Below are positions 8,183-30,931 of a DNA stretch of 64,000 bases, one piece after another. The DNA is taken from contig OY969087.1 in assembly GCA_963697525.1 (NCBI GenBank), forward strand, positions 735,236 through 799,235, given 5' to 3'. Under the pieces are notes generated by a model. It searched no databases. It was not told the DNA's origin and was given only the letters and a program-made list of their open reading frames with translations. Origin of the DNA: an uncultured delta proteobacterium (GTDB lineage: Bacteria; Myxococcota_A; Bradymonadia; Bradymonadales; Bradymonadaceae). The translations under genes were made by a program, and so were the position numbers. Position 1 is the stretch's first letter. The number at the start of each line of letters is the position of its first letter.

Positions 8183-8348
8183 CGTGCTTCTCCTCTAAAA
8201 TGCCAGGTTGGGTTGCATCAAACACTTAAGCATCCACTTAAGCTTATACGGCGAGCCCACCACAATCAAGCAGACACTTAAGTATTTTCACGCGATAATT
8301 TCGCACCCCACCCCCACAGCTAAACGGCCTCCCCTTATGTTTCCAACG

Positions 8349-8828
8349 TCATTGTCTCTCGTTTCCGACTTGGAGCACTGCTTCGATCATGTCGAAATGG
8401 AAGTTGGTACCGTGGCGGCGGTCCGCAGTACCGTCGCTTCCATTCAGAAATACGATCTGTTCAGTGTAGGAAACGCGGGTTCCGTCCACTATGGGCTCGA
8501 GCTGCAGGCTCGACAGGGTGACGGAATGGAAACGCCCCGAGTGAAAGAGGTCGTAGGCGTAAACGAGGCGCTCGGCAGGCTCGATCACATGGAAGCGAGC
8601 CTGGAAAAGTGTCACTAGACCACTTTCATTGAAGCGCCCCTCGAGCACCTCCGCGCCTCCCACCCGAAAATCCATCGACCGTCGAAGCAGGGTCCATCGC
8701 TCCTCCGGTCCGGTAAACCACTGCGCCTTGAGGTCCGGATCGGACCACGCGCGAAACACACGCTCGGGGGGAGCGGCCCATTCGCGCTCCAAATTGAACG
8801 TGCCGTGGCACAGAGGCATATCCGTCAT
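8349..8828 (-). CDS. SRPBCC / AHSA1-family (activator of Hsp90 ATPase homolog-like) protein
   Basis: 159 aa START-like protein lying 4 bp downstream-overlapping an ArsR gene, which is the classic ArsR–AHSA1 pairing; conserved W/F-rich core. Confidence 0.7.
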   Translation of the reverse strand: MTDMPLCHGTFNLEREWAAPPERVFRAWSDPDLKAQWFTGPEERWTLLRRSMDFRVGGAEVLEGRFNESGLVTLFQARFHVIEPAERLVYAYDLFHSGRFHSVTLSSLQLEPIVDGTRVSYTEQIVFLNGSDGTADRRHGTNFHFDMIEAVLQVGNERQ

Positions 8829-9208
8829 GATTCATCTCCTGGAACCGTCGGGGTCGAGGGCCCCGGGGGATCGTTGATATCGTCGCCTTCGAGCAACGCG
8901 CCCAGGCGATCAAACCGGCTTTCCCAGAGCTGGCGGCGCTCGTTCAGCCACTGCTCGACGCGCTTGACCGCGTCCCGAGAGAGCCGGCATTCGCGAGTGC
9001 GCCCGCGTTTCTCCGTAATAACGAGTCCGCCCTCCACGAGCACCTGGATGTGCTGGTGGATCGCGGCAAGCGACATGTCGAATGGCTCGGCCAGCTCGCT
9101 AACCGAGGCCGGACTTCGCGAAAGTTGATCGACAATCCCCCGACGCGTTGCGTTCGCTAACGCGTGAAATGCCAGGTCGAGTTGCTCTGATTCTTCCAGC
9201 ACGGGCAT
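8825..9208 (-). CDS. ArsR/SmtB-family transcriptional regulator
   Basis: Helix-turn-helix LANATRRGIVDQLSRSPASVSELAEPFDMSLAAIHQHIQVLVEGGLV. The start is taken at the internal MPVLEES. Confidence 0.75.
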   Translation of the reverse strand: MPVLEESEQLDLAFHALANATRRGIVDQLSRSPASVSELAEPFDMSLAAIHQHIQVLVEGGLVITEKRGRTRECRLSRDAVKRVEQWLNERRQLWESRFDRLGALLEGDDINDPPGPSTPTVPGDES

Positions 9209-9288
9209 AATTTCACAAAGTTGAGCTCGAAAGTAAAGCAATCACTTAAGTGAATTCATCGTAAGTTTTCGATATCAGCCGCAACGTC

Positions 9289-10845
9289 TCAGAGCTTCAA
9301 TCGAGTGCGAAGCTCGTCCTCCAACGGGTTGTAATAATCCGGCGCCCGCTCGTACACGCCGTCGAGGCCCTTGCCGCCGTCCTTGGGCCGAAAAACGTCG
9401 GCAAAGGTGCCGGCGGCGAGCGTCTCGAACAGCCCCTCGTCGCGCACGTTCTCCAACAGCTCGGTCGCCTCGGCGAGCACGGTCTGGGCGCGGGTCTGGA
9501 TGATGCCGCCCTCCTTGTACTGGACCTCGTCACCCAGGGCGCGGGCGTTGTTCATGACGTACTGGGCGTTTTCCAACGCCAGGTAGCGATCGCCCATATG
9601 CGGGGTGTGCATCGCCTCGGTCATCATGCCCAGAAGCTGGATGCCCTGTTTGGACCAGGCGCCGATGAGGTTGAACAACGCGTCCTGGATGTGACCGCGA
9701 AAGACGTTGCCGGTCATATACTTGGTGGGTGGCATATACTTGAGCGGCGCGTCCGGGAAGATCTCGCGGGCCATCTCGGCCTGGGCGAGCTCGAGCAAAA
9801 AGCCGTTTTCGATGGCCGGGTTCATCTCGAAGGCGTGGCCCAGCCCCATCTGCTCGGCGGGCAGGCCGCTGCGCAGGGCGAATTGCTCGTTGATGAACTG
9901 GCTGGCCAGGACCGTATGGGCGGCGTCGACGGCGTCGGCGGTGGTCAGATAGTTGTCCTCGCCGGTGTTGATGACCACCCCGGCGTAGGCGTTGATCATA
10001 CGGCTGAAGTATTGGTCGACGAAGGTGCGCTGGGGGTTGATGTCGCGAAACAAGATCCCGTACAGCGCGTCGTTGAGCATGACGTCGAGGCGCTCGAGGG
10101 CGCCCATGGCGGCGATCTCGGGCATGCACAGCCCGCTGCAGTAGTTGCACAGCCGGATGTAGCGGCCCAACTCCTCGCCGACCTCGTCGAGGCCCTCGCG
10201 CATGATCCGGAAATTCGCCTGGGTGGCGTAGGTGCCGCCGAAGCCCTCGGTGGTGGGCCCGTAGGGCACGTAATCGAGCAGGCTCTGGCCGGTCGAGCGG
10301 ATCACCGCGATGATGTCGGCGCCCTGGCGCGCGGCGGTGCGCGCCTGGACGACGTCCTCGTAGATATTACCGGTGGCGACGATGACGTAGTGCAGCGGCT
10401 GGGGGCGCTCTTCGGAGCGCTGCAGGCGCCGGTCACGCTCGGCGACGGTGGCTGCGATGTGATCGGCGGCATCCGCGGCCAGCTCCTGGCCGACCTCGCG
10501 CACCCGGGCCTCGTCGAATTGGGGCAACTCGGCCAGGCGCAGATCCCCCGAGGCCACAGCCTCGGCGATGGTCTGTGGCTCCCGGTTGGTCTGCAACATC
10601 GCCCGCGCCACCAGGCGCGTGACCCCCTCTCCGACCAGCCCGGCCTCGGCGGCCGCGTCCACCACCACGTTGGCCAGCGGGATATCGTCGGCGTCCACCC
10701 CGTCGATCCCCATCAAGCGCAGCACCGTGCGCTCGACCGCCACGGTCGTGCGCGCCCGGATGAACGCGTCCATCTCATCGGCGATCTGCGCGGCCGCCTG
10801 GCGCCCCCGCGCGATCATCTCGGCATCGAGACCCAGCTTCGACAT
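9289..10845 (-). CDS. kamD: Lysine 5,6-aminomutase alpha subunit (KamD family)
   Basis: 518 aa with long conserved blocks recalled from clostridial KamD: YVIVATGNIYED, IRSTGQSLLDYVPYG, TEGFGGTYATQ, IRLCNYCSGLCMPEIAAMGA, INTGEDNYLTTADA, LGHAFEM, APLKYMPPTK. Confidence 0.8.
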   Translation of the reverse strand: MSKLGLDAEMIARGRQAAAQIADEMDAFIRARTTVAVERTVLRLMGIDGVDADDIPLANVVVDAAAEAGLVGEGVTRLVARAMLQTNREPQTIAEAVASGDLRLAELPQFDEARVREVGQELAADAADHIAATVAERDRRLQRSEERPQPLHYVIVATGNIYEDVVQARTAARQGADIIAVIRSTGQSLLDYVPYGPTTEGFGGTYATQANFRIMREGLDEVGEELGRYIRLCNYCSGLCMPEIAAMGALERLDVMLNDALYGILFRDINPQRTFVDQYFSRMINAYAGVVINTGEDNYLTTADAVDAAHTVLASQFINEQFALRSGLPAEQMGLGHAFEMNPAIENGFLLELAQAEMAREIFPDAPLKYMPPTKYMTGNVFRGHIQDALFNLIGAWSKQGIQLLGMMTEAMHTPHMGDRYLALENAQYVMNNARALGDEVQYKEGGIIQTRAQTVLAEATELLENVRDEGLFETLAAGTFADVFRPKDGGKGLDGVYERAPDYYNPLEDELRTRLKL

Positions 10846-10939: not shown

Positions 10940-12370
10940 CCGCGACCAAACGGGTGTCAGACACCGCCCCAAATGGAGTGTCAGACACCGTAAGGGGCAG
11001 CTAGCATGCGGGTTTTCGAACAATGCCGGTCGTGCGAAACATCCGCGGGAGAAGAATTTGATCGGATTTGGAAACAGAACGCACGCCAAAAACGGAGGTG
11101 GCGGCCGACTAAGGTATGTACACCTGTGCGTTGGGTGATTCGGCGAAGGGACAGGCGCTGGAAAGGCACACCAGTGCGCTCAAACGCTGCCCGGACGGGA
11201 GTGTTCGGAGTTTCTTGGCGTGTTGTGTTACGGCCCGGCGGGTATCGCGCTTAGGCGAGGTCTTCCTCGCGCGGCTCGGGCGCGCCGACGCACTCGCGGT
11301 GGCCCGGCGGGATGGTGCCGTTGGGAAATTCGAGGTCGGTCTTGCCGTCCCTCCACTTGTCGGCGGCCTGTTTGTAGAGGTCGCGGACCTCCCAATACGT
11401 CGTTGTGTACTCCTCGCGAAGCTTCGGGTCGGTCGTGTGGCACAGCGGACACGGAGAGCTTTCGGAGTCTTTCGGGCGGTCGTACCAGTTCTGCTCGAGG
11501 ATTTTATCGACGCCCACGCACCCGCTTTTGCGGTGCTCGGCCAGGTGCTCGGCGTGGTCGCGAAGCTCCTCTAAGACCTTTTGGTTGTACGCCTCGTCGC
11601 TCAAATCCTTCCACATGGGCAGCTTGGCCATCTCGAGCTCGTAGTCGACCATGGCGCGGCGCTCGGCCTCGGCGTGGTCGATGTCTTTTCGGCGAAGCCG
11701 CCAGTACTCTTTTTTGTTGACGCGCTGTCCCACAAGCGGCGTTGCCGACTCGTGGAGGTCCCAGGAGGACAGCCCCGGCCAGAACTTGGGATGGGCGACC
11801 AGGTTGGACTCGCAGGGGTTACACACCGTGTAGCGAAGTTTGTTCAACAGCTCGTCGTCGTCGAGGATCGGCGAGCACTTGTAGCGGCTCTCGAAGAACG
11901 AGCCCGAGCGGCCCCAGTGGGCGTTTAGTTGCTTGGCGAGCTCGGTGTCGAGGAGCTGCATGAACTTCTGAATCTGACAGGAGTGCGAGCCGACCATCAG
12001 GTGGAAGTGGTTGGACATGAACACAAACGCGTAGATATCGACGTCGAACTTGTCGGCGGCGTAGGCGAGCACGTTGGCGATGATGGTGTTGACGTCCTTG
12101 CCGGGGCGAAAGAAGTAGCGCTGCTGCAGGCAGCGGATGGTGATGAAATAAATGATACCGGGTTCGAAATGACGCAGTCGATTTCCCATTGGGGTGGCTC
12201 CATAGGTTCGAGGTGATCGTTAATCCTCTCATTATGGTTTTCGGCAAAAAGGGGCGAATCGTTGCGTGATCGGGCAAAGTTTTTTTGCGAAGGGGGCCAT
12301 TGGCGGAGGAGTGCGATCGCGCGCTGAGGCGCATAGATGCTGGGTTGTGACGGTGTCTGACACCGTTTTT
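10940..12370. mobile_element. IS200/IS605- or RAYT-like element: HUH transposase gene flanked by GGTGTC(A/T)GACACC palindromes
   Basis: The palindrome sits at 10946–10959 and 10979–10992 (downstream) and 12350–12363 (upstream), each next to a C4/G4–A/T tract. It brackets the Y1-transposase-like CDS. Confidence 0.5.
11251..12189 (-). CDS. HUH Y1-transposase-like protein (IS200/IS605 TnpA / REP-associated tyrosine transposase-like) with a C-terminal extension
   Basis: HuH motif SNHFHLMV preceded by the IYFITIRC beta-strand, and the downstream catalytic-Tyr region FFESRYKC. C-terminal 150 aa carries a CPLCH Zn-finger-like motif. Confidence 0.55.
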   Translation of the reverse strand: MGNRLRHFEPGIIYFITIRCLQQRYFFRPGKDVNTIIANVLAYAADKFDVDIYAFVFMSNHFHLMVGSHSCQIQKFMQLLDTELAKQLNAHWGRSGSFFESRYKCSPILDDDELLNKLRYTVCNPCESNLVAHPKFWPGLSSWDLHESATPLVGQRVNKKEYWRLRRKDIDHAEAERRAMVDYELEMAKLPMWKDLSDEAYNQKVLEELRDHAEHLAEHRKSGCVGVDKILEQNWYDRPKDSESSPCPLCHTTDPKLREEYTTTYWEVRDLYKQAADKWRDGKTDLEFPNGTIPPGHRECVGAPEPREEDLA

Positions 12371-12618
12371 TGGGGCGGCGGGGTGGGGGGTGTTGTCTGC
12401 GGGATGCTGTTTGGTGATGGAGTCTGATTCCGCGGTGGATGCGGACACCGCAGTAGATACGTTTTTTTCAATATGGTAGGTTGGCAAGCACATACAACCT
12501 CTTTTGGGGCGGAACCGGCTGTCATACACCCGGTGGTGCGTCCGCGGTAGAGGTCAACTTGGTCCGACTCACTCACACTCATGGCGCTGAGCCGCTCGAA
12601 GCGACCTCGGAAGGAGAC

Positions 12619-13194
12619 ACGATGAACATGCCCCACCCATCAAACCACAATCCATACGCCGCCCCGGAGTCGATCGTCGACGAGGACCGCTCGTTCCAAC
12701 CGGATCCGTGGGCGACGCGCCCGTTGGCCACCCGGATGAGCCGGCTGGGCGCGGCGTTCGTCGACGGCCTCGCGCTCCTCGCGGCGATGCTGCCGTTTAT
12801 CGTGGTCGCCGGCATCGGCGGGGCGGCCAGAGCGCCCAAGCAGGCCCTGGCGGGCGTGGGTGGGCTGGCGCTGGTGGTATGCCTGTTGGCCCTGGGCGGC
12901 TACAATCTGTACCGGCTGCACACCCACGGTCAGACCATCGGCAAGCAGTTGCTGGGCATCCAGATCGTGCGAAGCGACCTGCAAACCCAGGCGTCGCTGG
13001 GGCGCATCATCGGGCTGCGCGTCGTGCCGCTGTGGCTGGTGGGCATGATCCCGTTTCTGGGACCGCTGCTCCAGTTGGCCGACCCGCTGTTCATCTTCAG
13101 CGACTCCCAGCAGTGCCTCCACGACCTGATCGCCGACACCAACGTGGTTGCCGGCAGCGAGCCGCTTTCGGCCTCGAGCAACGCCGGCTGGTAA
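12619..13194 (+). CDS. RDD-family membrane protein
   Basis: RDD-type topology: TM helices, a conserved R..D.D region, and LHDLIADT near the C-terminus. First gene of the overlapped operon. Confidence 0.65.
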   Translation, partial: TMNMPHPSNHNPYAAPESIVDEDRSFQPDPWATRPLATRMSRLGAAFVDGLALLAAMLPFIVVAGIGGAARAPKQALAGVGGLALVVCLLALGGYNLYRLHTHGQTIGKQLLGIQIVRSDLQTQASLGRIIGLRVVPLWLVGMIPFLGPLLQLADPLFIFSDSQQCLHDLIADTNVVAGSEPLSASSNAGW

Positions 13195-13889
13195 TGACGC
13201 GACTGGACACCATCCATACCATCGAGACGCCCGAGGGCGTCGAGTTCGAGGTGCACCTGGCCGGCCCGCTGCCGCGTATCCTGGCGGCGGGGGTCGACCT
13301 GTGCATTCGGGTGGTGGTCTACGCCATCATGGCGATCCCGCTGGCGATCCTGGGCAAGATCGGCATGGGTCTGCTCTTCCTGGCGATGTTCGTTGTCGAA
13401 TGGGGCTATCCGATCTACTTCGAGATGTACAAAAACGGCACCACCCCCGGCAAAAAGATGTTCGGCTTGCAGGCGCTCAACGCCGACGGCACCCCCATTA
13501 GTTGGAAGGGCTCGATCTTGCGCAACCTGTTGCGCACCGCCGATTTTTTGCCGGTGGGCTACACCCTGGGCATCGTCGCCATGGCCGTCACCGGGCGCTT
13601 CCAGCGCCTGGGGGACCTCGCCGGGGGCACGGTGGTGTGCTACCGGCGCACCGACGACGCCCGCCTGGGCGGCGATCTGCCCGACGTCCAACCGGTGGCC
13701 ACCAGCGAGCCGCTGTCCATCGAGGAGCAGCGCGCCATCGTGCAGTACGCCGAGCGCAGCGCCCAGTGGAACTACACCCGCAAGGCCGAGCTCGCCCGCC
13801 TGCTCGACGACCTCACCCACACCCAAAGCGGCACCGCCGCCATCAGCTTCCTGCAGGGGCTGGCCAACTGGATCATGAGGGGGCGATGA
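13194..13889 (+). CDS. RDD-family membrane protein (second copy)
   Basis: The ATG overlaps the previous stop (TAATG). TM-rich, with GTTPGKKMFGL ... RLGDLAGGT typical of RDD proteins. Confidence 0.65.
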   Translation: MTRLDTIHTIETPEGVEFEVHLAGPLPRILAAGVDLCIRVVVYAIMAIPLAILGKIGMGLLFLAMFVVEWGYPIYFEMYKNGTTPGKKMFGLQALNADGTPISWKGSILRNLLRTADFLPVGYTLGIVAMAVTGRFQRLGDLAGGTVVCYRRTDDARLGGDLPDVQPVATSEPLSIEEQRAIVQYAERSAQWNYTRKAELARLLDDLTHTQSGTAAISFLQGLANWIMRGR

Positions 13890-14851
13890 GCCAGGCAAGC
13901 TTCGTCAAAAAGAACGCGCCCCTGTGGCACGAGTTCGAGCACATGCTCGACGACCTCGACAAGGACTACCCCAGCTTTCCGGTCGACGACTTTCCGCGCC
14001 TGTACCGCACGCTGTGCCAGCACCTGTCCATCGCGCGCCACCGCGGCTACAGCGCCGCGCTGCTCGCCCGGCTCAACCCCCTGGTCGAGCGCGGCCACGC
14101 CGCCCTGTACGGCTCGCGCACCGGCCGCTGGCAGCCGATGTTGCGCTACATCCGCGCCGGCTTCGCCCGCGACGTGCGCGCCAACTGGCGCTACCTGCTC
14201 ATCTCGCTGTTCCTCTTTCTGGCCCCGGCCGTCGGGCTGTTCGTCTGGCTGCATTACGAGCCGCAGTGGGCCTACCACGTGCTCGGCGACCGCATGGTCA
14301 CCCAGATGGAGAAGATGTACTCCTCGGCCGACGCCATGAAGAAGGCGCGCCAGGCCGACTCCAACTTCATGATGTTCGGCTACTACATCTACCACAATAT
14401 CGGCATCGCCCTGCGCACCTTCGGCTCCGGGGCGGTCGCCGGCGTCGGGGCGATGGTCGCGGTGTTCTACAACGGCCTGATCTTGGGCGCCGTCGCCGGC
14501 CACCTGAGCAACGTCGGCGAGGCCCATAACCTGTGGCCCTACGTCATCGGCCACAGCGCCTTCGAGCTCACCGCCATCGTCCTGGCCGGCATGACCGGGC
14601 TCAAGCTCGGGTTCTCGCCCATCTGGCCGGGCCGAAAGAGCCGCCTGCAATCCCTGCAGGACACCGCCCGCGACAGCCTCGGGCTGGTCGCCGGCTTTTT
14701 CACCATGCTGGTGATCGCCGCGTTCATCGAGGGCTTCTGGTCAGCCACCGCCACCGAGCCCACCGTCAAATACGTCGTCGGCGCGGGGCTGTGGACCGTG
14801 GTCATCGGCTACTTCCTCTTGGCCGGCCGGGGGGGCGATGGATCTCGATAA
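13886..14851 (+). CDS. SpoIIM-like (DUF95) membrane protein
   Basis: ATGA start overlap. Multi-pass membrane protein with the stage-II-sporulation-M-like pattern (YYIYHNIG ... FYNGLILGAV ... GHSAFELTAI). Confidence 0.65.
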   Translation: MSQASFVKKNAPLWHEFEHMLDDLDKDYPSFPVDDFPRLYRTLCQHLSIARHRGYSAALLARLNPLVERGHAALYGSRTGRWQPMLRYIRAGFARDVRANWRYLLISLFLFLAPAVGLFVWLHYEPQWAYHVLGDRMVTQMEKMYSSADAMKKARQADSNFMMFGYYIYHNIGIALRTFGSGAVAGVGAMVAVFYNGLILGAVAGHLSNVGEAHNLWPYVIGHSAFELTAIVLAGMTGLKLGFSPIWPGRKSRLQSLQDTARDSLGLVAGFFTMLVIAAFIEGFWSATATEPTVKYVVGAGLWTVVIGYFLLAGRGGDGSR

Positions 14852-16451
14852 GATCGCCGCGCGCCTTCGCCCGCGCACCCCCTACGAGGCCACCGATCTG
14901 GGCTTTGTACTGGCGCGTCACTTCTGGAAGCCGCTGCTTCTGGGGTGGTTGGCCTGCGTATTGCCCATCGTGGTGGGCGCGGCGGTAATAGCCGCCCTCA
15001 CCCCGCTGTTCTGGCTGCCGCTGTTGGTCATCTGGTGGCTCAAACCGATGTACGACCGCGTACCGCTGTTCGTCCTGAGCCGGGCGTTCTTCGGCGAAGT
15101 CCCCACCACCCGCCAGACCGTCGGCTACGTCATGGGCACCTGGCGAAGCGGGCGGGTCCTCGCCGACATCACCTGGCGGCGCTTCAACCCCTACCGCGGC
15201 CCGGCGATGCCGGTGCGCGAGCTCGAGCGCCTGGGCGGCGCCGAGGCCTCCGAGCGTCTCAAGACGCTGCTTCGCCGCGGCCTGCAGGTCCCCTCGGGCT
15301 GGCTCGTCCTGGTGTGCATGGCCGTCGAGTGGCTCCTGGTGGGCGCAGCCATCGCCTTGATGTTCATGGTCACCCCGGACGCCCTGGGCCTCGACCTGGG
15401 CAGCAAGTTCCACCACTTGTTCACCAGCGGCAATATGCCGGGCTTCGAGCTGGTCATGCTCGGCGTGTACGTCCTCGCCATGAGCGCCGTCGAGCTCGCC
15501 TACGTGGCCGCGAGCTTCGGGCTGTACATCAACCGCCGGGTCCTCCTGGAGGGTTGGGACATCGAGATCGTCTTCAAGCGCCTGGCCAGCCGGCTGCGCG
15601 AGCGAGCGTCGGCTGCCCTTCGCGGCGCCGCCATCGTCGCGCTGGTCGGCCTGACGACCCTGGCCGCCACCACGCGTCCCGCCGCCGCCCAGCAACCCGC
15701 GGCCCAGACCGCCGGACAGTCCGCCTCGCCGGTCGCCAGCGCCAGCCCCGCCCCCGGCCCCAAGACGCGCAAGGTCGAGCCCTCCAAGCCCGCCCTCGAC
15801 CCGCAACAGGATATCGCCCACATCCTGAAGGCCCCGGAGTTCGGCCACACCAAAAAGGTCGAGCACTGGACGCTTCGCGAAGACCTCTTCGGCAAAAAGA
15901 AGAAGAAAAAGGCCGACATGAGCTGGCTGGAGAACGTCATCGCCAGCGTCGCCCCCGTCCTGCAGTACATCATGTGGGCGATCGCCGCGCTGCTGCTCAT
16001 CGCCGTGCTCTACTACATCATCCGAAAGGTGCGCATACCCGAAGGCGGCGCCGAAAGCGAGGTCGAGGTCGCCGCCCGCACCGACTACGACACCCCCGAG
16101 GAGACACCCCGGGTGACGCTTCCGGCCGACATCGTCGACGCCGCCATCGCCGCCTGGCGCCAGGGCGATCGGCCCCAGAGCCTGAGCCTGTTGTACCGGG
16201 GCACCATCCGCGGGCTGGCCAGCGGCTACCGCATCGAGATCGACGACAGCATGACCGCCCGTGAATGCGCCGGCAAGGTCCGCGAGGCCGGCGGCCCCGC
16301 CGACTACGTCGCCGAACTCGCCCGCGCGTGGACGGCCACGGTCTACGCCGATCGTCCCGTCAGCGACGAGCGCGCCCAACAGCTCTTCGGCGACTGGAAG
16401 CGCCACTTTCGCCCCGACACCGGCCCGTCCGCCCCGGGAGGTGTGCGGTGA
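14838..16451 (+). CDS. Membrane protein with a C-terminal DUF4129 domain
   Basis: N-terminal TM segments and a P/A/Q-rich linker. The C-terminus AAIAAWRQGDRPQSLSLLYRGTIRGLA ... MTARECAGKV is the DUF4129 signature. Confidence 0.6.
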   Translation: MDLDKIAARLRPRTPYEATDLGFVLARHFWKPLLLGWLACVLPIVVGAAVIAALTPLFWLPLLVIWWLKPMYDRVPLFVLSRAFFGEVPTTRQTVGYVMGTWRSGRVLADITWRRFNPYRGPAMPVRELERLGGAEASERLKTLLRRGLQVPSGWLVLVCMAVEWLLVGAAIALMFMVTPDALGLDLGSKFHHLFTSGNMPGFELVMLGVYVLAMSAVELAYVAASFGLYINRRVLLEGWDIEIVFKRLASRLRERASAALRGAAIVALVGLTTLAATTRPAAAQQPAAQTAGQSASPVASASPAPGPKTRKVEPSKPALDPQQDIAHILKAPEFGHTKKVEHWTLREDLFGKKKKKKADMSWLENVIASVAPVLQYIMWAIAALLLIAVLYYIIRKVRIPEGGAESEVEVAARTDYDTPEETPRVTLPADIVDAAIAAWRQGDRPQSLSLLYRGTIRGLASGYRIEIDDSMTARECAGKVREAGGPADYVAELARAWTATVYADRPVSDERAQQLFGDWKRHFRPDTGPSAPGGVR

Positions 16452-17674
16452 GCAGGCGCCAAAAGATCGCGCTCGCGCTCGCCGCGTTCGGCCTCGTCAT
16501 CGCCGGCGTCGTGGGCCTGTTCTTCATCTGCTTCCACAAGGTCACCTCGGAGGTGCGCGAGCCGCCCTCCGGCGAGGCCCGCAAGAACCCGTATTTGGCC
16601 AGCGAACGACTGCTCGAAGACCTGGGCTACACCGTCGACACGGTCGCACGGGCCAAGCGGCCCCCCTACGAGCGCCAGATTGTCATCCTGGCCGACCCCA
16701 ACCGGGACTTCTCCCCCGAGCAGGTCGACCAATGGGCGCGCTGGGTACGCGTGGGCGGCCACCTGATCGTACCCGCCCCGCTCGACCCCGACGCCGACGA
16801 AAAGCAGGCCGCCCTGCTGGGCCGGCTGGGCTTTACGCACCGCCAGGCATCCCAAAGCTCCGACACGAAGACCTCCGCGCCTCCGCAGACCTCCGCGCCT
16901 CCGCAGGCCTCCGCGCCTCCGCAGGCCTCCGCGCCTCCGCGCCCCCAGGCGCCACGCCCCAAGCCCCGCGCCACCGGCGCCACGCCCGCGCACACCTACG
17001 CCATCGACCCCGCCCCCGACGACACCCTGGCGTGGACCGCCTCTGACGCCGACTGGGTCGCCCGCGACCAGAACGACCACGTCTTCGCCCTCAGCCGCCC
17101 CGTGCACAGCGGCCGCGTCTCGGTGCTGCACAACACCTACGTGCTGCAAAACGACGCCATCGGCGACGGCACCCACGCCACGCTCTTGCGTGATCTGGTC
17201 GCGCTGACGCCCGGCGACGCCCCGTCGGTGCAGATCGTCAAGTTCAACCAGCGCCAGTCATGGACGGCCTACGTGCTTCGGTTTACCTGGCCGTTTTTCG
17301 TGGTGCTCCTGGTCGTGTTGGTGTTGGCCATTCAGGCCGGACGCAAGCGCTTCGGCCCGCTGCTCGCCCCACCGAGCACTCGGCGCCGCAGCCGCCTGGA
17401 GCATATCGAGGCGACGGGGCGCTTTTTGTGGAAGCACGACGCCACCGCCACCTTGCTCGAGTCCGTCCAGCAGGCGCTCGTCGGCGAGCTCGAGCGGCGC
17501 CACCCCGGCCTGGAGCAGGCGGTGGGAAGCGAGCGCGAACAGATCATCGCCCAGGAGTTGGGCACCTCCACCGAGGAGGTCCACCGGCTGTTTCGTCCAG
17601 CCTCGGGCAACCGCAACGTCGACCAGTTCATCGTCCAAATTCGCACCCTGGAACGCTACAGGAGAGACCTGTGA
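16448..17674 (+). CDS. DUF4350-domain protein
   Basis: GTG start overlapping the preceding stop. One N-terminal TM, then IVILADPNRDFSPEQVDQWARWVRVGGHLIV (DUF4350-like). It contains an in-frame (APPQxS)n repeat. Confidence 0.6.
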   Translation: MSRRQKIALALAAFGLVIAGVVGLFFICFHKVTSEVREPPSGEARKNPYLASERLLEDLGYTVDTVARAKRPPYERQIVILADPNRDFSPEQVDQWARWVRVGGHLIVPAPLDPDADEKQAALLGRLGFTHRQASQSSDTKTSAPPQTSAPPQASAPPQASAPPRPQAPRPKPRATGATPAHTYAIDPAPDDTLAWTASDADWVARDQNDHVFALSRPVHSGRVSVLHNTYVLQNDAIGDGTHATLLRDLVALTPGDAPSVQIVKFNQRQSWTAYVLRFTWPFFVVLLVVLVLAIQAGRKRFGPLLAPPSTRRRSRLEHIEATGRFLWKHDATATLLESVQQALVGELERRHPGLEQAVGSEREQIIAQELGTSTEEVHRLFRPASGNRNVDQFIVQIRTLERYRRDL

Positions 17675-18666
17675 CCACATCGCCTCCCCCCACGACGGCC
17701 CCGCCGATCGACATGGGCCAGATCACCCAGATTTTGCAGCGGCTGCGCGCCGAGATCCGCAAGGCCGTCGTCGGCCAGGACGAGGTGCTCGACCAGGTAT
17801 TATGCGCCTTTTTGGCCAGCGGCCACGTCCTCGTCGAGGGGGTGCCCGGGCTGGGCAAGACCCTGATGGTGCTGTCTCTGGCGCGCACCTTCGGCGGCAC
17901 GTTCAGCCGCGTGCAATTCACCCCCGATTTGATGCCCTCGGACGTCACCGGCCACGCCATCTTCCACGCCACCAGCGGTGATTTTCGGGTGCGCAAGGGC
18001 CCGGTCTTCGCCAACCTGCTGTTGGCCGACGAGATCAACCGCGCCCCCGCCAAGACCCAGGCGGCGCTGCTCGAGGTCATGCAGGAGCGCCAGGTCAGCA
18101 TCGAGGGACAGTCCTACCAGCTCGAGCCACCGTTTATGACGCTGGCCACCCAGAACCCCATCGAGCAGGACGGCACCTACCCGCTGCCGGAGGCCCAGCT
18201 CGACCGGTTTTTGTTCAAGATCGAGATCGACTACCCCGCCGAGCACCACGAATTCGACATCGTCGAGGAGGTCACCCGCGGGCGGGTGGGCGACTCGTTC
18301 AAGCTCGACCAGATCGAGCAGGTCATGACCCTCGAGCAGGCCCGCAAGCTCCAACAGATCTGCGCCCAGGTGCGCGTCGACCGGCGCATCATCGAGTACG
18401 GGGTGCGCCTGGTGCGCGCCACTCGCCAGTGGCCGGGCATGCGCGCCGGCGCCGGGCCGCGCGGGGCGATCTCGCTGATCCGCGCCGCCCGCGCCTTTGC
18501 CCTGCTCGACGGGCGCGACCACGTCATCCCCGACGACCTCAAGGAGATGGCCCTGCCCAGCCTGCGCCACCGCGTGCTGCTGAGCCCGGAGGTCGAGATC
18601 GACGGCATCCCCGCCGACGACCTGCTGCGCGACATCCTGCGCAAGGTGGAGGTACCGCGCACGTGA
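17671..18666 (+). CDS. MoxR-family AAA+ ATPase
   Basis: Walker A GVPGLGKT, Walker B LLADEINRA, sensor region; about 331 aa. Start overlaps the upstream stop. Confidence 0.9.
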   Translation: MTTSPPPTTAPPIDMGQITQILQRLRAEIRKAVVGQDEVLDQVLCAFLASGHVLVEGVPGLGKTLMVLSLARTFGGTFSRVQFTPDLMPSDVTGHAIFHATSGDFRVRKGPVFANLLLADEINRAPAKTQAALLEVMQERQVSIEGQSYQLEPPFMTLATQNPIEQDGTYPLPEAQLDRFLFKIEIDYPAEHHEFDIVEEVTRGRVGDSFKLDQIEQVMTLEQARKLQQICAQVRVDRRIIEYGVRLVRATRQWPGMRAGAGPRGAISLIRAARAFALLDGRDHVIPDDLKEMALPSLRHRVLLSPEVEIDGIPADDLLRDILRKVEVPRT

Positions 18667-19967
18667 TTGCGACCTCACGGCTCTACTGGTGCCTGGGCGG
18701 CCTGGCCGTCTGGGGTCTGGTGGCGGGGATCTTCTCGTTGGCCCTGCCGCTGTGGCTGGGCGGCTGCGCCGCGCTGGCGGCGGCGGTGCTCGTCGAGTGG
18801 TGGTGGCTTCGCCGCGTCGAGCCGCCGCGCCTGACGCGCGAGGTCCCCGACTCGCTGGCCGTGGGGGTGTGGACCGACGTCACCCTGGTGGTGCGCTCGT
18901 TCCAGCGCCAGACACTGCGCCTGGAGCTGTTCGACAAACCGCCGGCGACCTGCGAGATGCAGGGCATGCCGGCGACGCTTCGCCTGCCCTACGACAAGCG
19001 CGCCCGGCTGACCTACCGCCTCAAGGCCAACGAGCGCGGCGCCCGCCACTTCAGCGCCCCCGACCTGCGCATCCACGGGCCGCTGGGGCTGGTGATGCGC
19101 CAGATCGAGCATGGCCCCACCGGGGCGTTTCGGGTGCTGCCCAACTTCAAAGCCGTCAGCCGCTACGCGCTGATGGCCACCGCCGATCGCATCGGCGAGT
19201 TGGGCATCCGCAAGCTTCGCCGCCGCGGGGCGGGCATGGAGTTTTCGCACCTTCGCGACTACCGCCAGGGCGATTTGAGCCGCCAGATCGACTGGAAAGC
19301 CACCGCCCGGCGCAACAAGCTCATCTCGCGCGAATACGAGGACGAACGCAACCAGCATATCGTGTTTCTGCTGGACTGCGGCCGGCGCATGCGCGCTCGC
19401 GACGGCAAGCTGTCGCACTTCGACCACTGCCTCAACGCCACCCTGCTGCTCAGCCACGTCTCGCTTCGCCAGGGCGACTCGGTGGCCCTGATGGCCTTCG
19501 GCGGCCACAAGCTGTGGGTGCCGCGCCAAAAAGGCCCCGGCGGGATGAACGCCGTGCTCGAGAAGGTCTACGACCTGGAGACCACCACCGCCCCCAGCGA
19601 CTACAGCGAGGCCGCCCGCCGACTCACCGCCGTCCAGCGCCGCCGGGCGCTGGTGGTCGTGCTCACCAACCTGTACGACCAGGACAACGACGAGCTCATC
19701 GAAGCCGTCTCGCTTCTTCGCCAGCGCCACGTGGTGCTGGTGGCCAGCCTGCGCGAGGCGGCCACCGAGCAGGCCATCAGCCGGCCGGTCGTCGACCTGG
19801 ACGACGCCCTGTGCGTCGCCGCCGGCCACGAATACCTGCGCCACCGCGACAAAACCCACCGCCAACTGATCAGCCGCGGGGTGATGATGCTCGACGTCCA
19901 GCCCCAGCAGCTCTCCGTCCAACTGGTCAATCGCTACCTCGAGATCAAGCGCGCGGGCCTTCTGTAG
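18663..19967 (+). CDS. DUF58-domain protein (MoxR partner, VWA-like)
   Basis: DUF58 core GMEFSHLRDYRQGDLSRQIDWKATAR, then a VWA-like region IVFLLDCGRRM. Overlaps the MoxR stop. Confidence 0.8.
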   Translation: MIATSRLYWCLGGLAVWGLVAGIFSLALPLWLGGCAALAAAVLVEWWWLRRVEPPRLTREVPDSLAVGVWTDVTLVVRSFQRQTLRLELFDKPPATCEMQGMPATLRLPYDKRARLTYRLKANERGARHFSAPDLRIHGPLGLVMRQIEHGPTGAFRVLPNFKAVSRYALMATADRIGELGIRKLRRRGAGMEFSHLRDYRQGDLSRQIDWKATARRNKLISREYEDERNQHIVFLLDCGRRMRARDGKLSHFDHCLNATLLLSHVSLRQGDSVALMAFGGHKLWVPRQKGPGGMNAVLEKVYDLETTTAPSDYSEAARRLTAVQRRRALVVVLTNLYDQDNDELIEAVSLLRQRHVVLVASLREAATEQAISRPVVDLDDALCVAAGHEYLRHRDKTHRQLISRGVMMLDVQPQQLSVQLVNRYLEIKRAGLL

Positions 19968-20044
19968 GGCGCTCTTTTTTGCGACCAAATCGATCGACCG
20001 ACGCGCTTTGCGCGCGCGGCGAAGCTTGCTAATCTGTCGCAATA

Positions 20045-22042
20045 ATGCGTACCTCTCTCTTCGTATCCGCGACGCTCGTCGTCGGCTCACTCGCAGTCAG
20101 CTTGCTCTCGCCGAACGCCTATGCCGACGACGGCCTCTCGCTGCGCGTGGGCATATATCAAAACGAGCCCAAGATCTTCCGGGACAAGCAGGGAAACCCC
20201 CAGGGATTATTCGTCGACCTCCTCGACGCCGTCGCCGCCGACCAGGGGTGGTCGCTGACCTACGTCGATTGTCGTTGGCCCACCTGCCTGAAGATGCTTC
20301 GCGCCGGCCAGATCGACGTGATGCCGGACATGGCGATCTCGGCGCGGCGCGCCAAACACTTCGACTTCTCGAACGAGGCCGTCACCGACAGCTTCTCGCG
20401 CATCTACGCACCCGACAGCGCCGACATCGACACCCTCGACGACCTGCGCGGGCGGCGCATCGCCGTGCTCGACGGATCGAGCCAACAGGCCGAGTTGCAA
20501 CGGCGCAATCAGCGCCTCGGTGATGCCCTGCGGCTCGTCGCCGCCGATTCCTTCGACCAGGCCTTCCGGATGGTCGAGCAGGGACACGCCGACGCGGTCA
20601 TCGCCAACAACTTCTTCGGCGACCGGCGTGCCTCGACGTTTGACCTGAAGCGAACGCCCGTGGTCCTTCAGCCGGCCAGGCTATACTTCGCGGCCCATCG
20701 AGGCACGCCGCCCGAGGTCCTGCAAAGCATCGACGAGCACCTGTCGGCCTGGCAGAAGCAATCCCCTTCGCCGTATTACGACGCGTTGCGCCGCTGGACC
20801 GCCCCGCCCGACAAGCCACGCACGCCCGGATGGCTGAAGTACGTCCTGATGGCCGCGGTGGGCGTGCTCGTGCTCGCCGGTTTGATCATCGTCGTCTTGC
20901 GGCGCGAGGTCGCCAAACGCACCCGCCACCTGCACCAGAAGAACGAGGAGTTGCGCCAAAACCAGCGCCACCTCAGCCTGATGGTCGACCACGGCCCCGA
21001 CATCGTCGCCCACGTGGACACTTCCGGGCAGCTCGTCTTCGTCAACCGACGCATTGAAGACATCGCCGGGTGGAGCCCCGAGGACGTCGTCAACACCCCC
21101 TTCGCCGAGCTGTTCGAGGAGGTGGACGACGCCGACGGGGCCGCCTGCCTAAGAGGCGAGGTCCAGCAATCGCCGGTCTTTCGCGCCAAGCTGCGCCACC
21201 AAAACGGACACGCCGTCCCGGTGGAGGTGCGCGCCGGGACCATTCGCAACGAGCAGGGCGACGTGTGGCTTTGTCAGATGACCCTGCGCGATTTGAGTCG
21301 ACAGATGCGCGCGCTTCGCGCGCTCGAGCGCACCCAGCGCATGGAAACCGTGGGCACGCTCGCCGGGGGCATCGCCCACGACTTCAACAATCTGCTGGCC
21401 GTCATCAGCTCCTGCGCCCAGCTCGCGCTCTCCCAGGTCGACGACGACAGTGCCATCACCCAAGACCTGCAGGATATCCTGGAGGCCACCCACGCCGCCT
21501 CACGGGTGACCGGGCAGCTCCTGTCGTTCAGCAAGCGCCGCGCGGGCCAGCGCCAACCGACGAGCGTCTCGGAGACCATCCGCAAGCTTTCAGAGGTGCT
21601 CGAGCGCTTCGTCGACGAGCGTATCGACCTGCAGATCGAGCTGAGCGACGGCACCGACGAGGTGCTCGCCGACCCCAGCCAGCTCGAGCAGATCGTGCTC
21701 AACCTGACGGTCAACGCCCGCGACGCCATCGCCGACCAGGGACATATTCGCATCACCACGCGGGTCGACGACGTCGACGATGAGGTCGTCCTCGAGGTCT
21801 CGGACACCGGCTGCGGCATGGACCAGGAGACCCTCGAACACGCCTTCGAGCCCTTTTTCACCACCAAGGAAGACCACGGGGGCACCGGCCTGGGCATGGC
21901 GACCATCTACGGCGCCGTGCTGCAGGCCGACGGTCACATCGACATCACCAGCGCCCCCGGCGAAGGCACCTGCGTGACCATTCGCCTTCCCCGCCGAGCG
22001 GCGGACGCCCACACCCCCGCGGTCGCCCCGACCGACCCGTGA
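20045..22042 (+). CDS. Sensor histidine kinase with a periplasmic solute-binding (SBP_bac_3-like) domain, TM, PAS, HisKA and HATPase_c
   Basis: Signal peptide. The periplasmic domain resembles amino-acid-binding proteins. H-box AHDFNNLL, N box LNLTVNARDA, G boxes DTGCGM and GTGLGMA. Confidence 0.8.
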   Translation: MRTSLFVSATLVVGSLAVSLLSPNAYADDGLSLRVGIYQNEPKIFRDKQGNPQGLFVDLLDAVAADQGWSLTYVDCRWPTCLKMLRAGQIDVMPDMAISARRAKHFDFSNEAVTDSFSRIYAPDSADIDTLDDLRGRRIAVLDGSSQQAELQRRNQRLGDALRLVAADSFDQAFRMVEQGHADAVIANNFFGDRRASTFDLKRTPVVLQPARLYFAAHRGTPPEVLQSIDEHLSAWQKQSPSPYYDALRRWTAPPDKPRTPGWLKYVLMAAVGVLVLAGLIIVVLRREVAKRTRHLHQKNEELRQNQRHLSLMVDHGPDIVAHVDTSGQLVFVNRRIEDIAGWSPEDVVNTPFAELFEEVDDADGAACLRGEVQQSPVFRAKLRHQNGHAVPVEVRAGTIRNEQGDVWLCQMTLRDLSRQMRALRALERTQRMETVGTLAGGIAHDFNNLLAVISSCAQLALSQVDDDSAITQDLQDILEATHAASRVTGQLLSFSKRRAGQRQPTSVSETIRKLSEVLERFVDERIDLQIELSDGTDEVLADPSQLEQIVLNLTVNARDAIADQGHIRITTRVDDVDDEVVLEVSDTGCGMDQETLEHAFEPFFTTKEDHGGTGLGMATIYGAVLQADGHIDITSAPGEGTCVTIRLPRRAADAHTPAVAPTDP

Positions 22043-22048
22043 ACGTGC

Positions 22049-23421
22049 TTACGCGGCCTTCGTGGTGGTCAGCCCGCGAATGGACGCCTCCATGCCGCCC
22101 TCCTCGCGGTTTTGCAGCGTGAGCGTCCACCCGTGCAGCTCGCAGACGCGCCGGGCGATGGACAGCCCGAAGCCCTGCCCGCCGGGGCGGCGCGTGCGCG
22201 CCTCGTCGACGCGAAAGTCGCGGTCGGTCAGGTGTTCGACCATCTCGGCGGGCACGCCCGGCCCGTCGTCGATGACCCGCAGATCGAAGGCCCCGTCGAC
22301 CGGCTCGAGCACCACGCTGACGTGGCCGCCGGCGGAGTTGTACTGGATGGCGTTCTGGACGAGGTTGCTCAGCGCCTGCTCGACCAGCGTGGAGTCGCAG
22401 TCGAACTCGATGGCCTCCGGGGGCACCGCCCAGTTGAGCTCGACGCCCTTCTGCTCGGCCAACGGCTGGTGGCGCGCGGCCACCCGCTCGACGATCTCCC
22501 CCATATTGCACCGATGGATGGTCAGCTCTTCGCCGCGGCGATCCAATCGGGCGGCCGCCCCCATATTGGAGATGAGCGCGGCGATATAATGGGCCTCCTC
22601 CATCGCCGAGGCCGCCAACGCCGCGGCGTCCTCGTCGTCTTCGAGCTGGCGCTGCAGCTTGCGGATGCGATGCTGGACCACCGTCAGCGGGATGGCCAGA
22701 TCGTGGGTGGTGTTGGCGATATACTCGGTCAGCGCGCGGTCGCGCGCCTCCAGCTCGTCGACCGTCTCGCGCACCCGGTCGCCGGCGGCGTTGAACGCGC
22801 GCGCAAGCTCGCCAATCTCGTCGTTGGCGTCGGTCTCCGCGTCGACCTGGTAGTCCGGCCCGCCAGCCTCTTCGATGGCCTGGGTCAGCCGCCGGATGCG
22901 CCGCACCATCGGCCCGGCGGCGACCAGCGCCGTGAGCACCAGCACGATGAAGGCGACCACCGCCTGCAGCGCCACGTCGGCCATGAAATGGCGCGGCCCG
23001 CGCCCCGGCCGCTTGGGCCAGTACACCGCCACCACCGAGCACGGCGTGTTCGGCCAGGGCGTGCGAATGGCGGTCACCCCGCCAAAGCGCGGGTTGCGCC
23101 AAAAATCCTCGCTGGCGGTGTCGTCGCCGCTTCGCAGCGCGCCGATCACATCCGACGGAAGCGGCGGCGCGTGGCGGTTGGCCGAACGAAAATCGGCCCC
23201 GTAACCAAAGATCATAAACCCGTGGCGCACGCGCAGGTGAAACTTTTCGGGCCGCTCCAAGCAACGCCCGCCCCCGCGCGCCTCCATGCGCGCCGAGATC
23301 CGGCTGGCCACCCGCTCCTGGAAGGCGCGCCGCTCCCCGTACACCCGAAACACGGTGAACAACACCATCACGGGCACCACGATCGCCGCCAGGGTCAACG
23401 CCAATTTCGGTCTAAGTTTCA
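22049..23421 (-). CDS. Sensor histidine kinase (TM–HAMP–HisKA–HATPase_c)
   Basis: Start MKLRPK overlaps the response-regulator stop (ATGA). H-box TTHDLAIPLTVV; N/G boxes LVQNAIQYN, DDGPGV, GQGFGLSIA. Confidence 0.85.
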
Positions 23422-24102
23422 TGCCTCGCTTCGCTTCGCTGAGTGATCGAGCTTGTAGCCGATGCCCCACACCGTGGCGACAAGCTTGCCGGCCTCGCCG
23501 AGCTTCTTGCGAATGCGCGAGATGTGGACGTCGAGGGTGCGCTCGGTGCCTTCGCTCTCCTCGGGCAGGGCGCGCTCGACCAATTGGCGCCGGGTGATCG
23601 CCATGCCCGGCCGGCGCGCCAGCGCGGCGAGGATGTCGAACTCCGCGGGGGTCAGGTCGACCGGTTGGCCGTCGACGGCGACCGTGTGCGCCTCGAAGTC
23701 GATGGCCAGCGGGCCGAACTCCCGATCGGCCTGGCGCCGCATCACCGGCCGGCGAAGCCGGGCGCGGATGCGCGCCAACAGCTCCTCGGGCCAAAACGGC
23801 TTGGTCATATAGTCGTCGCCGCCCAGCTCGAAGCCGCGAAGCTTGTCGTGGGTCTCCTGGCGCGCCGTCAAAATGATCACCGGCACGTCCGATTGAGTGC
23901 GGTATTTTTTGAGCACGTCGAAGCCGTGTTTGCCCGGCAACATCAGGTCGAGCACCACCAGATCGTAGTCCTCGATGGCCTCGAAATACGCCTCCGAGCC
24001 ATCCTTGATCCAGGTAACCTCGAAGCCCTCCTCGTCGAGCGACTCGAATAATTCGTCGCCCAGCGCGAAATCATCTTCGACCAATAAAATGCGATCAGTC
24101 AT
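23419..24102 (-). CDS. OmpR-family response regulator
   Basis: Receiver domain ILLVEDD ... DLVVLDLMLPG ... ILTAR plus a winged-helix output LTPAEFDIL ... GIGYKL. Confidence 0.9.
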   Translation of the reverse strand: MTDRILLVEDDFALGDELFESLDEEGFEVTWIKDGSEAYFEAIEDYDLVVLDLMLPGKHGFDVLKKYRTQSDVPVIILTARQETHDKLRGFELGGDDYMTKPFWPEELLARIRARLRRPVMRRQADREFGPLAIDFEAHTVAVDGQPVDLTPAEFDILAALARRPGMAITRRQLVERALPEESEGTERTLDVHISRIRKKLGEAGKLVATVWGIGYKLDHSAKRSEA

Positions 24103-30013: not shown

Positions 30014-30106
30014 AATTCACTACAAACATCGCCGTACTCTTTCACCATGACGCAGCGAGGGTCGACCCGGGTGCGCACCACGATGAGCGCGCTGTAGGTC
30101 CGCAAC

Positions 30107-30916: not shown

Positions 30917-30931
30917 CGCAGGTGACCACTC

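Follow-up and report, generated by a model that had tools for sequence, protein, structure and literature searches.

A translationally coupled MoxR-DUF58 membrane operon in a Bradymonadaceae genome and a candidate N-terminal tag on its accessory proteins

MoxR-type AAA+ ATPases form pairs with VWA-domain proteins, as in CbbQ-CbbO and NorQ-NorD. In the Bat operons the partners BatA and BatB join a VWA domain with a canonical metal ion-dependent adhesion site (MIDAS) to transmembrane (TM) segments, and TPR (BatC) and SH3 (BatE) proteins are also present; the TgpA type of Pseudomonas is a cluster of MoxR, DUF58 and transglutaminase genes. For one MoxR-VWA pair, RavA-ViaA, action on a specific target has been described (PMC12067865), and bacterial SpoIIM homologues have already been remarked upon beside vWA and COG0714 genes (PMC5898192). 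Modules of the MoxR-DUF58 kind, moxR2 of Mycobacterium tuberculosis included, rank with the most widespread AAA+ systems of bacteria and archaea that are still uncharacterised, and the role of DUF58 proteins next to MoxR was still unknown according to a 2025 review (PMC12067865). Here we describe a seven-gene operon of this kind on the forward strand of a 64,000-nucleotide stretch, referred to below as the window, of contig OY969087.1 (assembly GCA_963697525.1) from an uncultured delta proteobacterium of the family Bradymonadaceae.

The operon is real and correctly annotated, and is an ordinary member of the widespread, already noted MoxR-DUF58 membrane module. What the comparison of homologous loci adds, as far as sequences can tell, is a six-gene core, a variable seventh slot beside it, and an NPYxAP tail that the proteins encoded in the slot appear to share. 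Together, core, slot and tail provide a testable hypothesis on what the MoxR machine may act on: if the tail were a docking signal, candidate clients could be read from genome sequence.

The operon and its six-gene core

Coding frames were assigned from a frame analysis of G+C at third codon positions (GC3) and by direct reading of the sequence; the G+C content of the window is about 65%. Between 12.6 and 20.0 kb, GC3 marks one + strand coding frame at a time, and the following seven genes result.

12622-13194, + strand: g1, ATG start, 190 aa, RDD-family protein with about three TM segments; putative interchangeable seventh subunit
13194-13889, + strand: g2, 231 aa, core RDD-family membrane protein with a conserved C-terminal helical extension
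13886-14851, + strand: g3, 321 aa, SpoIIM-like polytopic membrane protein
14838-16451, + strand: g4, 537 aa, DUF4129 membrane protein
16448-17674, + strand: g5, GTG start, 408 aa, DUF4350 protein
17671-18666, + strand: g6, GTG start, 331 aa, MoxR-type AAA+ ATPase
18663-19967, + strand: g7, GTG start, 434 aa, DUF58 protein

A first-pass annotation of this DNA had proposed a translationally coupled operon of seven genes, and seven + strand genes do overlap at every junction. It had put the overlaps at 4 bp or 14 bp, which fits five of the junctions, namely g2/g3 (ATGA, 4 bp), g3/g4 (14 bp) and g4/g5, g5/g6 and g6/g7 (GTGA, 4 bp each); the g1/g2 junction, TAATG, is an overlap of 1 bp. It had also begun the operon at 12619, three bases before the ATG of g1 at 12622. 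Most of the seven starts are preceded by a purine-rich, Shine-Dalgarno-like sequence, which in the case of g1 (GGAAGGAGA) lies 4 nt 5′ of the ATG, and the starts of g4 and g5 coincide with the first residue of homologues in alignments. The closest relative, locus L083, in which g4 is 64% identical, has the corresponding seven genes with junctions of 1, 4, 14, 4, 4 and 4 bp, and this shared pattern indicates that the coupling is conserved and not accidental.

The order RDD-RDD-SpoIIM-like-DUF4129-DUF4350-MoxR-DUF58, as first assigned, stands, each of the seven proteins having a Pfam match that passes the curated cut-off. Hidden Markov model (HMM) searches recovered DUF4129, DUF4350 and DUF95 (now SpoIIM, PF01944) alike, and since all Pfam matches lie above the gathering score, no HMM failure speaks against the assignments. 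The further description of the operon as a conserved but functionally uncharacterised membrane module agrees with both the synteny comparison and the literature (PMC5898192, PMC12067865).

Homologues of g4 numbered 379 at E <= 1e-3, most of those listed covering 93-100% of its length at 30-35% identity. When relatives of g4 were sought in one genome per species, at least 557 were found, and the best 80 loci were examined. These come from at least five phyla and span Gamma- and Betaproteobacteria, Verrucomicrobiota, Acidobacteriota and Myxococcota/Bradymonadales, with Pseudomonas, Microbulbifer, Dyella, Thiothrix and Accumulibacter among the genera. As far as the contigs reach, homologues of g2 to g7 stand in identical order and on the same strand in 80/80 loci, and a g2 homologue occupies the equivalent position in nearly all of them. 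We use the term long-DUF4129 type for a cassette in which RDD, SpoIIM, DUF4129, DUF4350, MoxR and DUF58 genes follow one another on one strand and the N-terminal domain of g4 is fused to DUF4129. The window, the 80 genome loci, Catenovulum and the two closest relatives (L083 and L084) all conform to it, and on the replicon of Catenovulum adriaticum the six genes are likewise annotated by the Prokaryotic Genome Annotation Pipeline (PGAP).

Cassettes with the same families in another order are also found. Plasmids of Rhizobium and Paracoccus carry the permuted order DUF4129-DUF4350-MoxR-DUF58-SpoIIM-RDD, and Nocardia has an order similar to this permuted form with a divergent RDD gene; in permuted cassettes the DUF4129 protein is only about 250 aa long and is without the N-terminal domain of g4. 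That the composition is kept through rearrangement argues that the six proteins work together, and hence for functional coupling as opposed to inherited adjacency.

Two observations on gene content may be recorded here. In the permuted Rhizobium and Paracoccus cassettes (L082, 4285-4728 and 10982-11611; L166, 8235-8675), a DUF805 gene without the tail described below opens the operon in translational coupling with the short DUF4129 gene, and in Rhizobium a DUF2314 gene follows the RDD gene. A Bernardetia plasmid (L168, 8076-10854) carries an RDD gene and an unusually long SpoIIM-family gene (617 aa) as a divergent pair, with no MoxR or DUF58 gene nearby, which suggests a sub-module able to exist alone.

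The variable slot and the NPYxAP tail

The slot beside the cassette is held, depending on lineage, by a gene of the g1-type RDD, BPSS1780, YciC-like or DUF805 kind. The BPSS1780-family neighbours match NCBIfam NF041043 at E ~1e-60, and the YciC-like proteins are relatives of the BPSS1780 family. The slot lies mostly immediately 5′ of g2 on the same strand, and at times is divergent or placed after g7; all accessory proteins encoded in it are compact polytopic membrane proteins. A few residues after the start codon they carry a tail with the consensus [ND]-P-Y-x-A-P-x-A-x-[VL]-x-[DE], or more finely [ND]-P-Y-[QA]-A-P-x-A-x-[VL]-[AT]-[DE]. The example in the window is that of g1.

12649..12684, + strand: tail motif NPYAAPESIVDE, residues 10-21 of g1, read from the translation, in which g1 begins MNMPHPSNH-NPYAAP-ESIVDE

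Profile comparison by hhalign aligned g1 with BPSS1780 at 90.7% and with DUF805 at 87.4% probability, the match being confined in each case to residues 1 to ~22-23. As a working definition, an NPYxAP-tailed protein was taken to be one that is encoded beside a cassette, has [ND]-P-Y-x-[AST]-P no more than about 15 residues from its start and continues with two or more TM segments; g1, with about three TM segments, is such a protein. It is also the sole motif-bearing open reading frame (ORF) in all six frames of the window. Arginines R38 and R41 stand just before the first TM helix of g1 and place the tail, by prediction, in the cytoplasm. A motif of the NPYxAP type has no counterpart of relevance in the literature searched.

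How far the tail goes with the cassette was counted in the flanks of the genome loci. When the strict motif and at least 100 residues after it were required, 23 ORFs were found within 1.5 kb of the cassette ends (198 kb in all) and 0 in the 447 kb of farther flank, a split with a chance of ~1.6e-12, calculated from the counts, if such ORFs were evenly spread. With the relaxed motif and at least two TM segments, a tagged neighbour lies within 3 kb in 36/80 loci, nearly always at a distance of 250 bp or less, again with 0 distant matches. The BPSS1780 gene of Catenovulum, 2.4 kb downstream of the cassette and on the opposite strand, also begins MENTETNPYQAPESD; a tblastn search of plasmids with a BPSS1780 protein returned 2 records only.

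The tail is absent from the core RDD protein g2, from the DUF805 genes that open the permuted Rhizobium and Paracoccus operons, and no tagged ORF was found in the Nocardia locus. Untagged DUF805, BPSS1780 or g1-type genes did not occur in the distant flanks of the examined loci, so that the only untagged comparators are g2, the core RDD protein, and the DUF805 genes found in permuted cassettes. To judge from these sequences, the tail is not intrinsic to the families that carry it; it appears to track the cassette type that bears the g4 N-terminal domain, as seen against three permuted lineages only.

The protein g1 itself is an RDD-family member (PF06271, 63 bits, E = 4.8e-17, cut-off 24.1) in which the conserved Arg and Asp residues of that family, R38, R41, D48 and D168, are invariant, and its orthologues share an invariant GQTxGK motif and a CxHD motif. 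The remark in the first-pass annotation that the RDD component is duplicated here holds in so far as there are two RDD genes; the two belong to distinct subfamilies, and the layout is widespread (57/66 metagenome loci, see below). Identity between g1 and g2 is 28% over part of the length (E = 4e-6), and hhalign relates them at 98% probability, which denotes kinship at family level only. A recent tandem duplication of g2 as the origin of g1 is thus ruled out by the 28% identity and the distinct subfamilies.

True g1 orthologues flank the cassette in 6/80 genome loci, and L083 and L084, the two closest relatives, have them too. The association was also examined in reverse, by a metagenome search from an alignment of four g1-type sequences, which gave 375 relatives, of which 80 loci were inspected. 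Where at least 600 bp of downstream DNA was available, g2 followed the g1-type gene directly in 57/66 loci, and where at least 7.3 kb was available, all six cassette genes followed in 27/32. This reverse test indicates that the seven-gene layout with two RDD genes is a common variant and that g1 is a dedicated accessory gene. In one locus, L124, the g1-type gene sits just after the g7 gene and not before g2.

Some loci depart from a single intact g1-type gene. Two or three g1-type RDD genes stand in tandem 5′ of g2 in L104, L118, L150, L152 and L158. In L084 (478-1175; GCA_964386725.1) the gene is split into two overlapping ORFs, the N-terminal piece beginning MMNQPNPYAAP; the split could be a frameshift, a pseudogene or an error in the assembly of a metagenome-assembled genome (MAG).

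Domain architecture, candidate mechanism and rivals

The ATPase g6 matches Pfam AAA_3 at 210.8 bits (E = 7e-63, cut-off 27) and AAA_lid_2 at 77 bits, and aligns with the structure of Cytophaga MoxR (PDB 2r44) at E = 3.8e-79. Its Walker A (GVPGLGKT) and Walker B (LLLADE) motifs are intact and both at least 90% conserved in 67 sequences, and by these features g6 looks like a functional MoxR ATPase. Its DUF58/VWA partner gene, g7, adjoins it with the 4-bp overlap. In g7, the DUF58 match (PF01882) reaches 98.9 bits (E = 3e-28, cut-off 23.4), and a VWA_2 match of 26.8 bits (E = 8.2e-6) falls just under its 27-bit cut-off. An N-terminal TM hairpin is followed by a predicted cytoplasmic VWA-like domain, which at the position of the MIDAS motif reads as follows.

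19374..19391, + strand: DCGRRM of g7 at the VWA MIDAS (DxSxS) position, from the translation; it departs from the canonical MIDAS

The sequence D-x-G-R-R-M is conserved in 56-59/59 orthologue sequences, and permuted cassettes have DSGRLM or DTGHLM at the same position. NCBIfam gave no family for six of the seven proteins, and for g6 only sub-threshold matches of chelatase/GvpN type.

Among the core membrane proteins, g2 matches Pfam RDD at 63.7 bits (E = 2.9e-17, cut-off 24.1) and has four residues, R28, D35, D117 and D141, that are at least 90% conserved. The SpoIIM match of g3 (PF01944, formerly DUF95) scores 111 bits (E = 7.1e-32, cut-off 26.9); about 100 aa at its N-terminus form a domain predicted to be cytoplasmic, and the N-terminal part of its orthologues is PF28475 DUF8413 in newer Pfam.

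The DUF4129 match of g4 (PF13559, 42.2 bits, E = 8.7e-11, cut-off 24.8) covers residues 452-517. In the AlphaFold2 model, which has a mean predicted local distance difference test (pLDDT) score of 80, with values above 90 for residues 10-240 and 430-520, an N-terminal 4-TM domain with a helical cytoplasmic insert is followed by TM5, a disordered linker, TM6 and the DUF4129 bundle.

14838..15611, + strand: g4 N-terminal domain, residues 1-258, all-helical in the model, pLDDT >90
15669..15965, + strand: g4 linker, residues 278-376, Pro/Ala/Gln- and Lys-rich, low-complexity, pLDDT <50, predicted periplasmic
16131..16409, + strand: g4 DUF4129 helical bundle, residues 432-524, predicted cytoplasmic, pLDDT >90

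The N-terminal multi-TM domain, reported at first as an extra of this protein, is indeed present; it is the standard architecture of the cassette type, a phmmer search with this domain alone yielding 1993 cluster representatives, of which nearly all of the best 150 are about 500 aa long and hence DUF4129-fused. Pfam has no model that matches it, even when E values up to 10 are allowed. Its invariant residues are R11, R13, D20, P70, R74, R115, R120, E130, R140, Y230, R234, E238 and W240, and it contains a WWxKP motif. Two candidate origins were rejected: it is not a diverged RDD, SpoIIM, DUF805 or BPSS1780 domain (hhalign probability <=12%), nor a fused neighbour gene of the permuted cassettes, there being no match in the Rhizobium, Paracoccus or Nocardia loci. 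TM5 is similar to the signal peptide with which the short DUF4129 proteins begin. The Pro/Ala/Gln-rich linker noted earlier was borne out by the translation, and it varies in sequence and length among homologues. A transglutaminase core (Cys-His-Asp) has no Pfam match in g4, and the DUF4129 bundle resembles the HEPN fold, but the conserved Rx4-6H catalytic motif is absent from it.

In g5, which matches Pfam DUF4350 at 58.5 bits, above the gathering score, a signal-anchor TM segment precedes a periplasmic GIFT/ThuA-like domain, a second TM segment and a helical domain on the cytoplasmic side, which carries an RFGP motif, invariant and just after the membrane. The model of g5 matches IFT52-N (GIFT), ThuA-like domains and the oligosaccharyltransferase subunit OST48/WBP1, and its fold is that of the class-I glutamine-amidotransferase-like (GIFT) proteins; the GldG-type similarity agrees with an earlier description (PMC5898192). 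The conserved residues are G103, G104, H105, G222 and N235, and there is neither a conserved Cys nor a catalytic triad. A near-perfect tandem repeat of 18 bp x 4 (16869-16940) encodes TSAPPQ/ASAPPQ; these repeats fall in a loop of the periplasmic domain that is variable and modelled with low confidence.

[quoted passage not shown]

The reading we favour, to which we give somewhat less than an even chance, is that of an inner-membrane MoxR/VWA complex that recruits tail-bearing small membrane proteins. The products of g2 to g7 would form a multi-subunit assembly in which cytoplasmic MoxR (g6) is coupled, through the membrane-anchored VWA adaptor g7, to the polytopic or bitopic proteins g2, g3, g4 and g5. 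The tail would serve as a docking tag that brings in small membrane proteins as clients or as interchangeable subunits, and the MoxR/VWA pair would spend ATP to assemble, remodel or release them, in the manner of such pairs on other targets (RavA-ViaA, PMC12067865). Docking may take place on a cytoplasmic surface of the complex, and the likeliest receptor would be the g4 N-terminal domain, as permuted cassettes without this domain are also without tagged neighbours. The more specific proposal, that the tail is an undescribed cytoplasmic tag marking RDD, DUF805 and BPSS1780/YciC-like clients with the g4 N-terminal domain as its receptor, is put forward tentatively, as a possibility on the unlikely side. 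Candidate outputs would include membrane or envelope homeostasis, small-subunit transport, envelope sensing through the GIFT-like domain, and functions at the division site.

Published observations on homologues fit a membrane complex. In M. tuberculosis the SpoIIM-like protein Rv3694c and the RDD protein Rv3695 both co-purified with Rv0954 (PMC8093794), and in Bacillus subtilis the RDD protein SppI binds and regulates the membrane protease SppA (PMC7568657). If the proposal is true, the cassette would amount to a "tag plus machine" system dedicated to proteins of the inner membrane, and to a rare case of a MoxR-DUF58 module with identified clients; culturable carriers of the cassette include strains of the Pseudomonas fluorescens group, Dyella, Microbulbifer and Catenovulum, and possibly Persicimonas.

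Several points weigh against the proposed complex and its tag. In about half of the cassettes, among them those of the Pseudomonas loci L047, L068, L074 and L078, a tagged gene is lacking within 3 kb. In 9/66 metagenome loci g2 is not directly downstream of the g1-type gene, and 5 of those 9 have ~8 kb of downstream DNA and no cassette gene. The 80 loci are phylogenetically related, so the p-value of the enrichment overstates their independence, a caveat eased by the involvement of unrelated families (RDD versus DUF805 versus the related BPSS1780/YciC-like proteins) and of four orientations. The link between tag and g4 N-terminal domain comes from three permuted-cassette lineages only. The MIDAS serines of g7 are replaced, so that its VWA domain is not a canonical metal-dependent one and cannot take ligands by the usual metal-mediated route. 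Topologies were derived from hydrophobicity and the positive-inside rule alone, and all interactions within the cassette are inferred from gene neighbourhood and sequence.

Of the rival explanations, one takes the cassette for a secretion or surface-assembly system in which the periplasmic GIFT/GldG-like domain of g5 handles an exported glycan or protein. For archaea, DUF4350 has been connected with GldG and with a complex predicted to act in secretion or membrane remodelling (PMC5898192), and the similarity of the g5 model to GIFT, ThuA-like and OST48/WBP1 domains points the same way. We consider this unlikely, however, as neither secreted or S-layer proteins nor Ig-like or outer-membrane components occur in the annotated larger flank clusters, only small polytopic inner-membrane proteins recur as bacterial neighbours, most of the conserved surfaces are predicted to be cytoplasmic, and g5 has no conserved Cys or catalytic triad.

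It is likewise improbable that the RDD, DUF805 and BPSS1780/YciC-like proteins are ion or solute transporters, with the MoxR/VWA pair as their regulator or assembly factor. The accessory proteins are compact and polytopic, both g1 and g2 retain the Arg and Asp residues conserved in the RDD family, and for an RDD protein of Halobacillus an activity as Na+(Li+,K+)/H+ antiporter has been reported (PMC5996927); yet B. subtilis SppI, 39% identical to the Halobacillus protein, has no salt or pH phenotype and binds a protease (PMC7568657). No substrate was identified from the present analysis, and a transport function overlaps with the recruitment of tail-bearing proteins and does not exclude it.

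A scaffold for cell division or cell-wall remodelling, comparable to SpoIIM recruiting the peptidoglycan hydrolases SpoIID and SpoIIP in engulfment, is less likely still. While g3 is a clear SpoIIM-family member, and the SpoIIM-like and RDD homologues of M. tuberculosis co-purified with the divisome-associated Rv0954 (PMC8093794), the co-purification list of Rv0954 is long and unspecific, SpoIIM homologues are widespread in non-sporulating organisms with roles unknown (PMC5898192), and no hydrolase gene (SpoIID, SpoIIP) was found in the operon, in the scanned neighbours or in the annotated recurrent flank clusters. That the cassette is a MoxR-vWA system of phage defence or conflict is highly improbable: although work cited in PMC12067865 places MoxR-vWA pairs in ternary conflict systems of some bacteria, and g6 has a weak match to PF20030 bpMoxR (E = 1.8e-12), AAA_3 scores far above bpMoxR in g6, PADLOC gives noise-level matches only for all seven proteins, genes for a beta-propeller, an effector or a VMAP-type protein are missing, and the cassette is chromosomal with a stable order across phyla, unlike defence islands.

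The DNA on either side of the operon contains the following further features.

12190..12621, + strand: intergenic region 5′ of g1, the presumed promoter region, with no coding frame in the GC3 plot
19957-19980, + strand: terminator-like hairpin with a T-run at the end of the operon, overlapping the g7 stop codon, from a consensus scan and the sequence; weak stem of 5 pairs

No sigma-70-like site on the + strand of 12190..12621 emerged from a consensus scan. On the far side of this 430-bp gap, and divergent from g1, lies a 312-aa ORF (11251-12189, - strand) with an IS200-like Y1 transposase domain (E = 5.8e-9), which exceeds the typical length of an IS200 transposase. Beyond it, 9289-10845 (- strand) encodes a D-lysine 5,6-aminomutase alpha subunit (E = 1.5e-260) whose closest named relatives are those of Persicimonas caeni (86% identity) and Bradymonas sediminis (83%), which puts the host among the Gram-negative Bradymonadales, as a relative of Persicimonas. 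Directly 3′ of the operon, a sensor kinase gene (20045-22042, + strand) encodes a periplasmic solute-binding domain (SBP_bac_3), PAS, HisKA and HATPase domains, and a response regulator lies at 23419-24102; in L083 a kinase of matching type (8045-10012) stands 3′ of the operon, with a further kinase and a response regulator beyond. Farther along the window, 27617-30013 (- strand) encodes a P450-flavodoxin-FAD-NAD fusion of the P450 BM3 type, in which the P450 match begins at profile position 278, so that its N-terminal half may have been lost, may be frameshifted or may lie in an adjacent ORF. From 30000 to 38500 the AT skew is strongly positive, up to 0.32, in a region that includes a 1782-aa ORF at 33067-38415.

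Relation to known systems

Short terminal motifs on otherwise unrelated proteins, with a motif-bearing gene often by the machinery, are familiar from the exosortase/PEP-CTERM and rhombosortase/GlyGly-CTERM sorting systems. The tail described here differs in being N-terminal, predicted to be cytoplasmic and carried by polytopic proteins, and no protease or transpeptidase is evident; the resemblance is an analogy only.

The individual components also have described counterparts. SppI regulates its partner through its C-terminal domain (PMC7568657), and g2 likewise has a conserved C-terminal extension; the SppI system is without a MoxR/VWA partner, whereas the operon described here is without an SppA-like protease. 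Adaptors of the RavA-ViaA type are soluble and have the MIDAS metal site; g7, in contrast, is membrane-anchored and has DCGRRM instead. With the Bat operons (Bacteroides aerotolerance; Borrelia BB0170-BB0176) and mycobacterial moxR1, the cassette has in common a MoxR protein of the MRP subfamily together with DUF58 and membrane-anchored partners (PMC5700661, PMC12067865). The Bat operons are, however, without RDD, SpoIIM, DUF4129 and DUF4350, and Bat-type domains (BatA/BatB, TPR, SH3) are absent from all seven proteins of the operon. Compared with the MoxR-DUF58-transglutaminase clusters, g4 has no transglutaminase core, and its membrane domain is of a different, unnamed family.

With the bifidobacterial PFNA operon, the cassette shares MoxR, DUF58 and a membrane protein ending in DUF4129 (PMC12067865); the PFNA operon adds a Ser/Thr kinase and an FN3 protein. 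The archaeal arCOG01314 (DUF4350)-MoxR-vWA association has in common a GIFT/GldG-like membrane-anchored protein, COG0714 and vWA (Makarova et al. 2015, PMC5898192). The archaeal neighbourhood adds S-layer and Ig-like proteins, whereas RDD, DUF4129 and tagged proteins are not described there.

The mycobacterial moxR2 cluster, Rv3689-Rv3695, comprises the same six families in a matching permuted arrangement (table in PMC8191103), as do the permuted cassettes of Nocardia, Rhizobium and Paracoccus. Both the moxR2-type and the permuted cassettes differ from the operon described here in gene order, in a short DUF4129 protein (~250 aa) without the 4-TM domain and in the lack of an NPYxAP neighbour. 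The DUF58 proteins of Rhizobium and Paracoccus have DxGxxM in place of the MIDAS, as in proteins of the g7 type.

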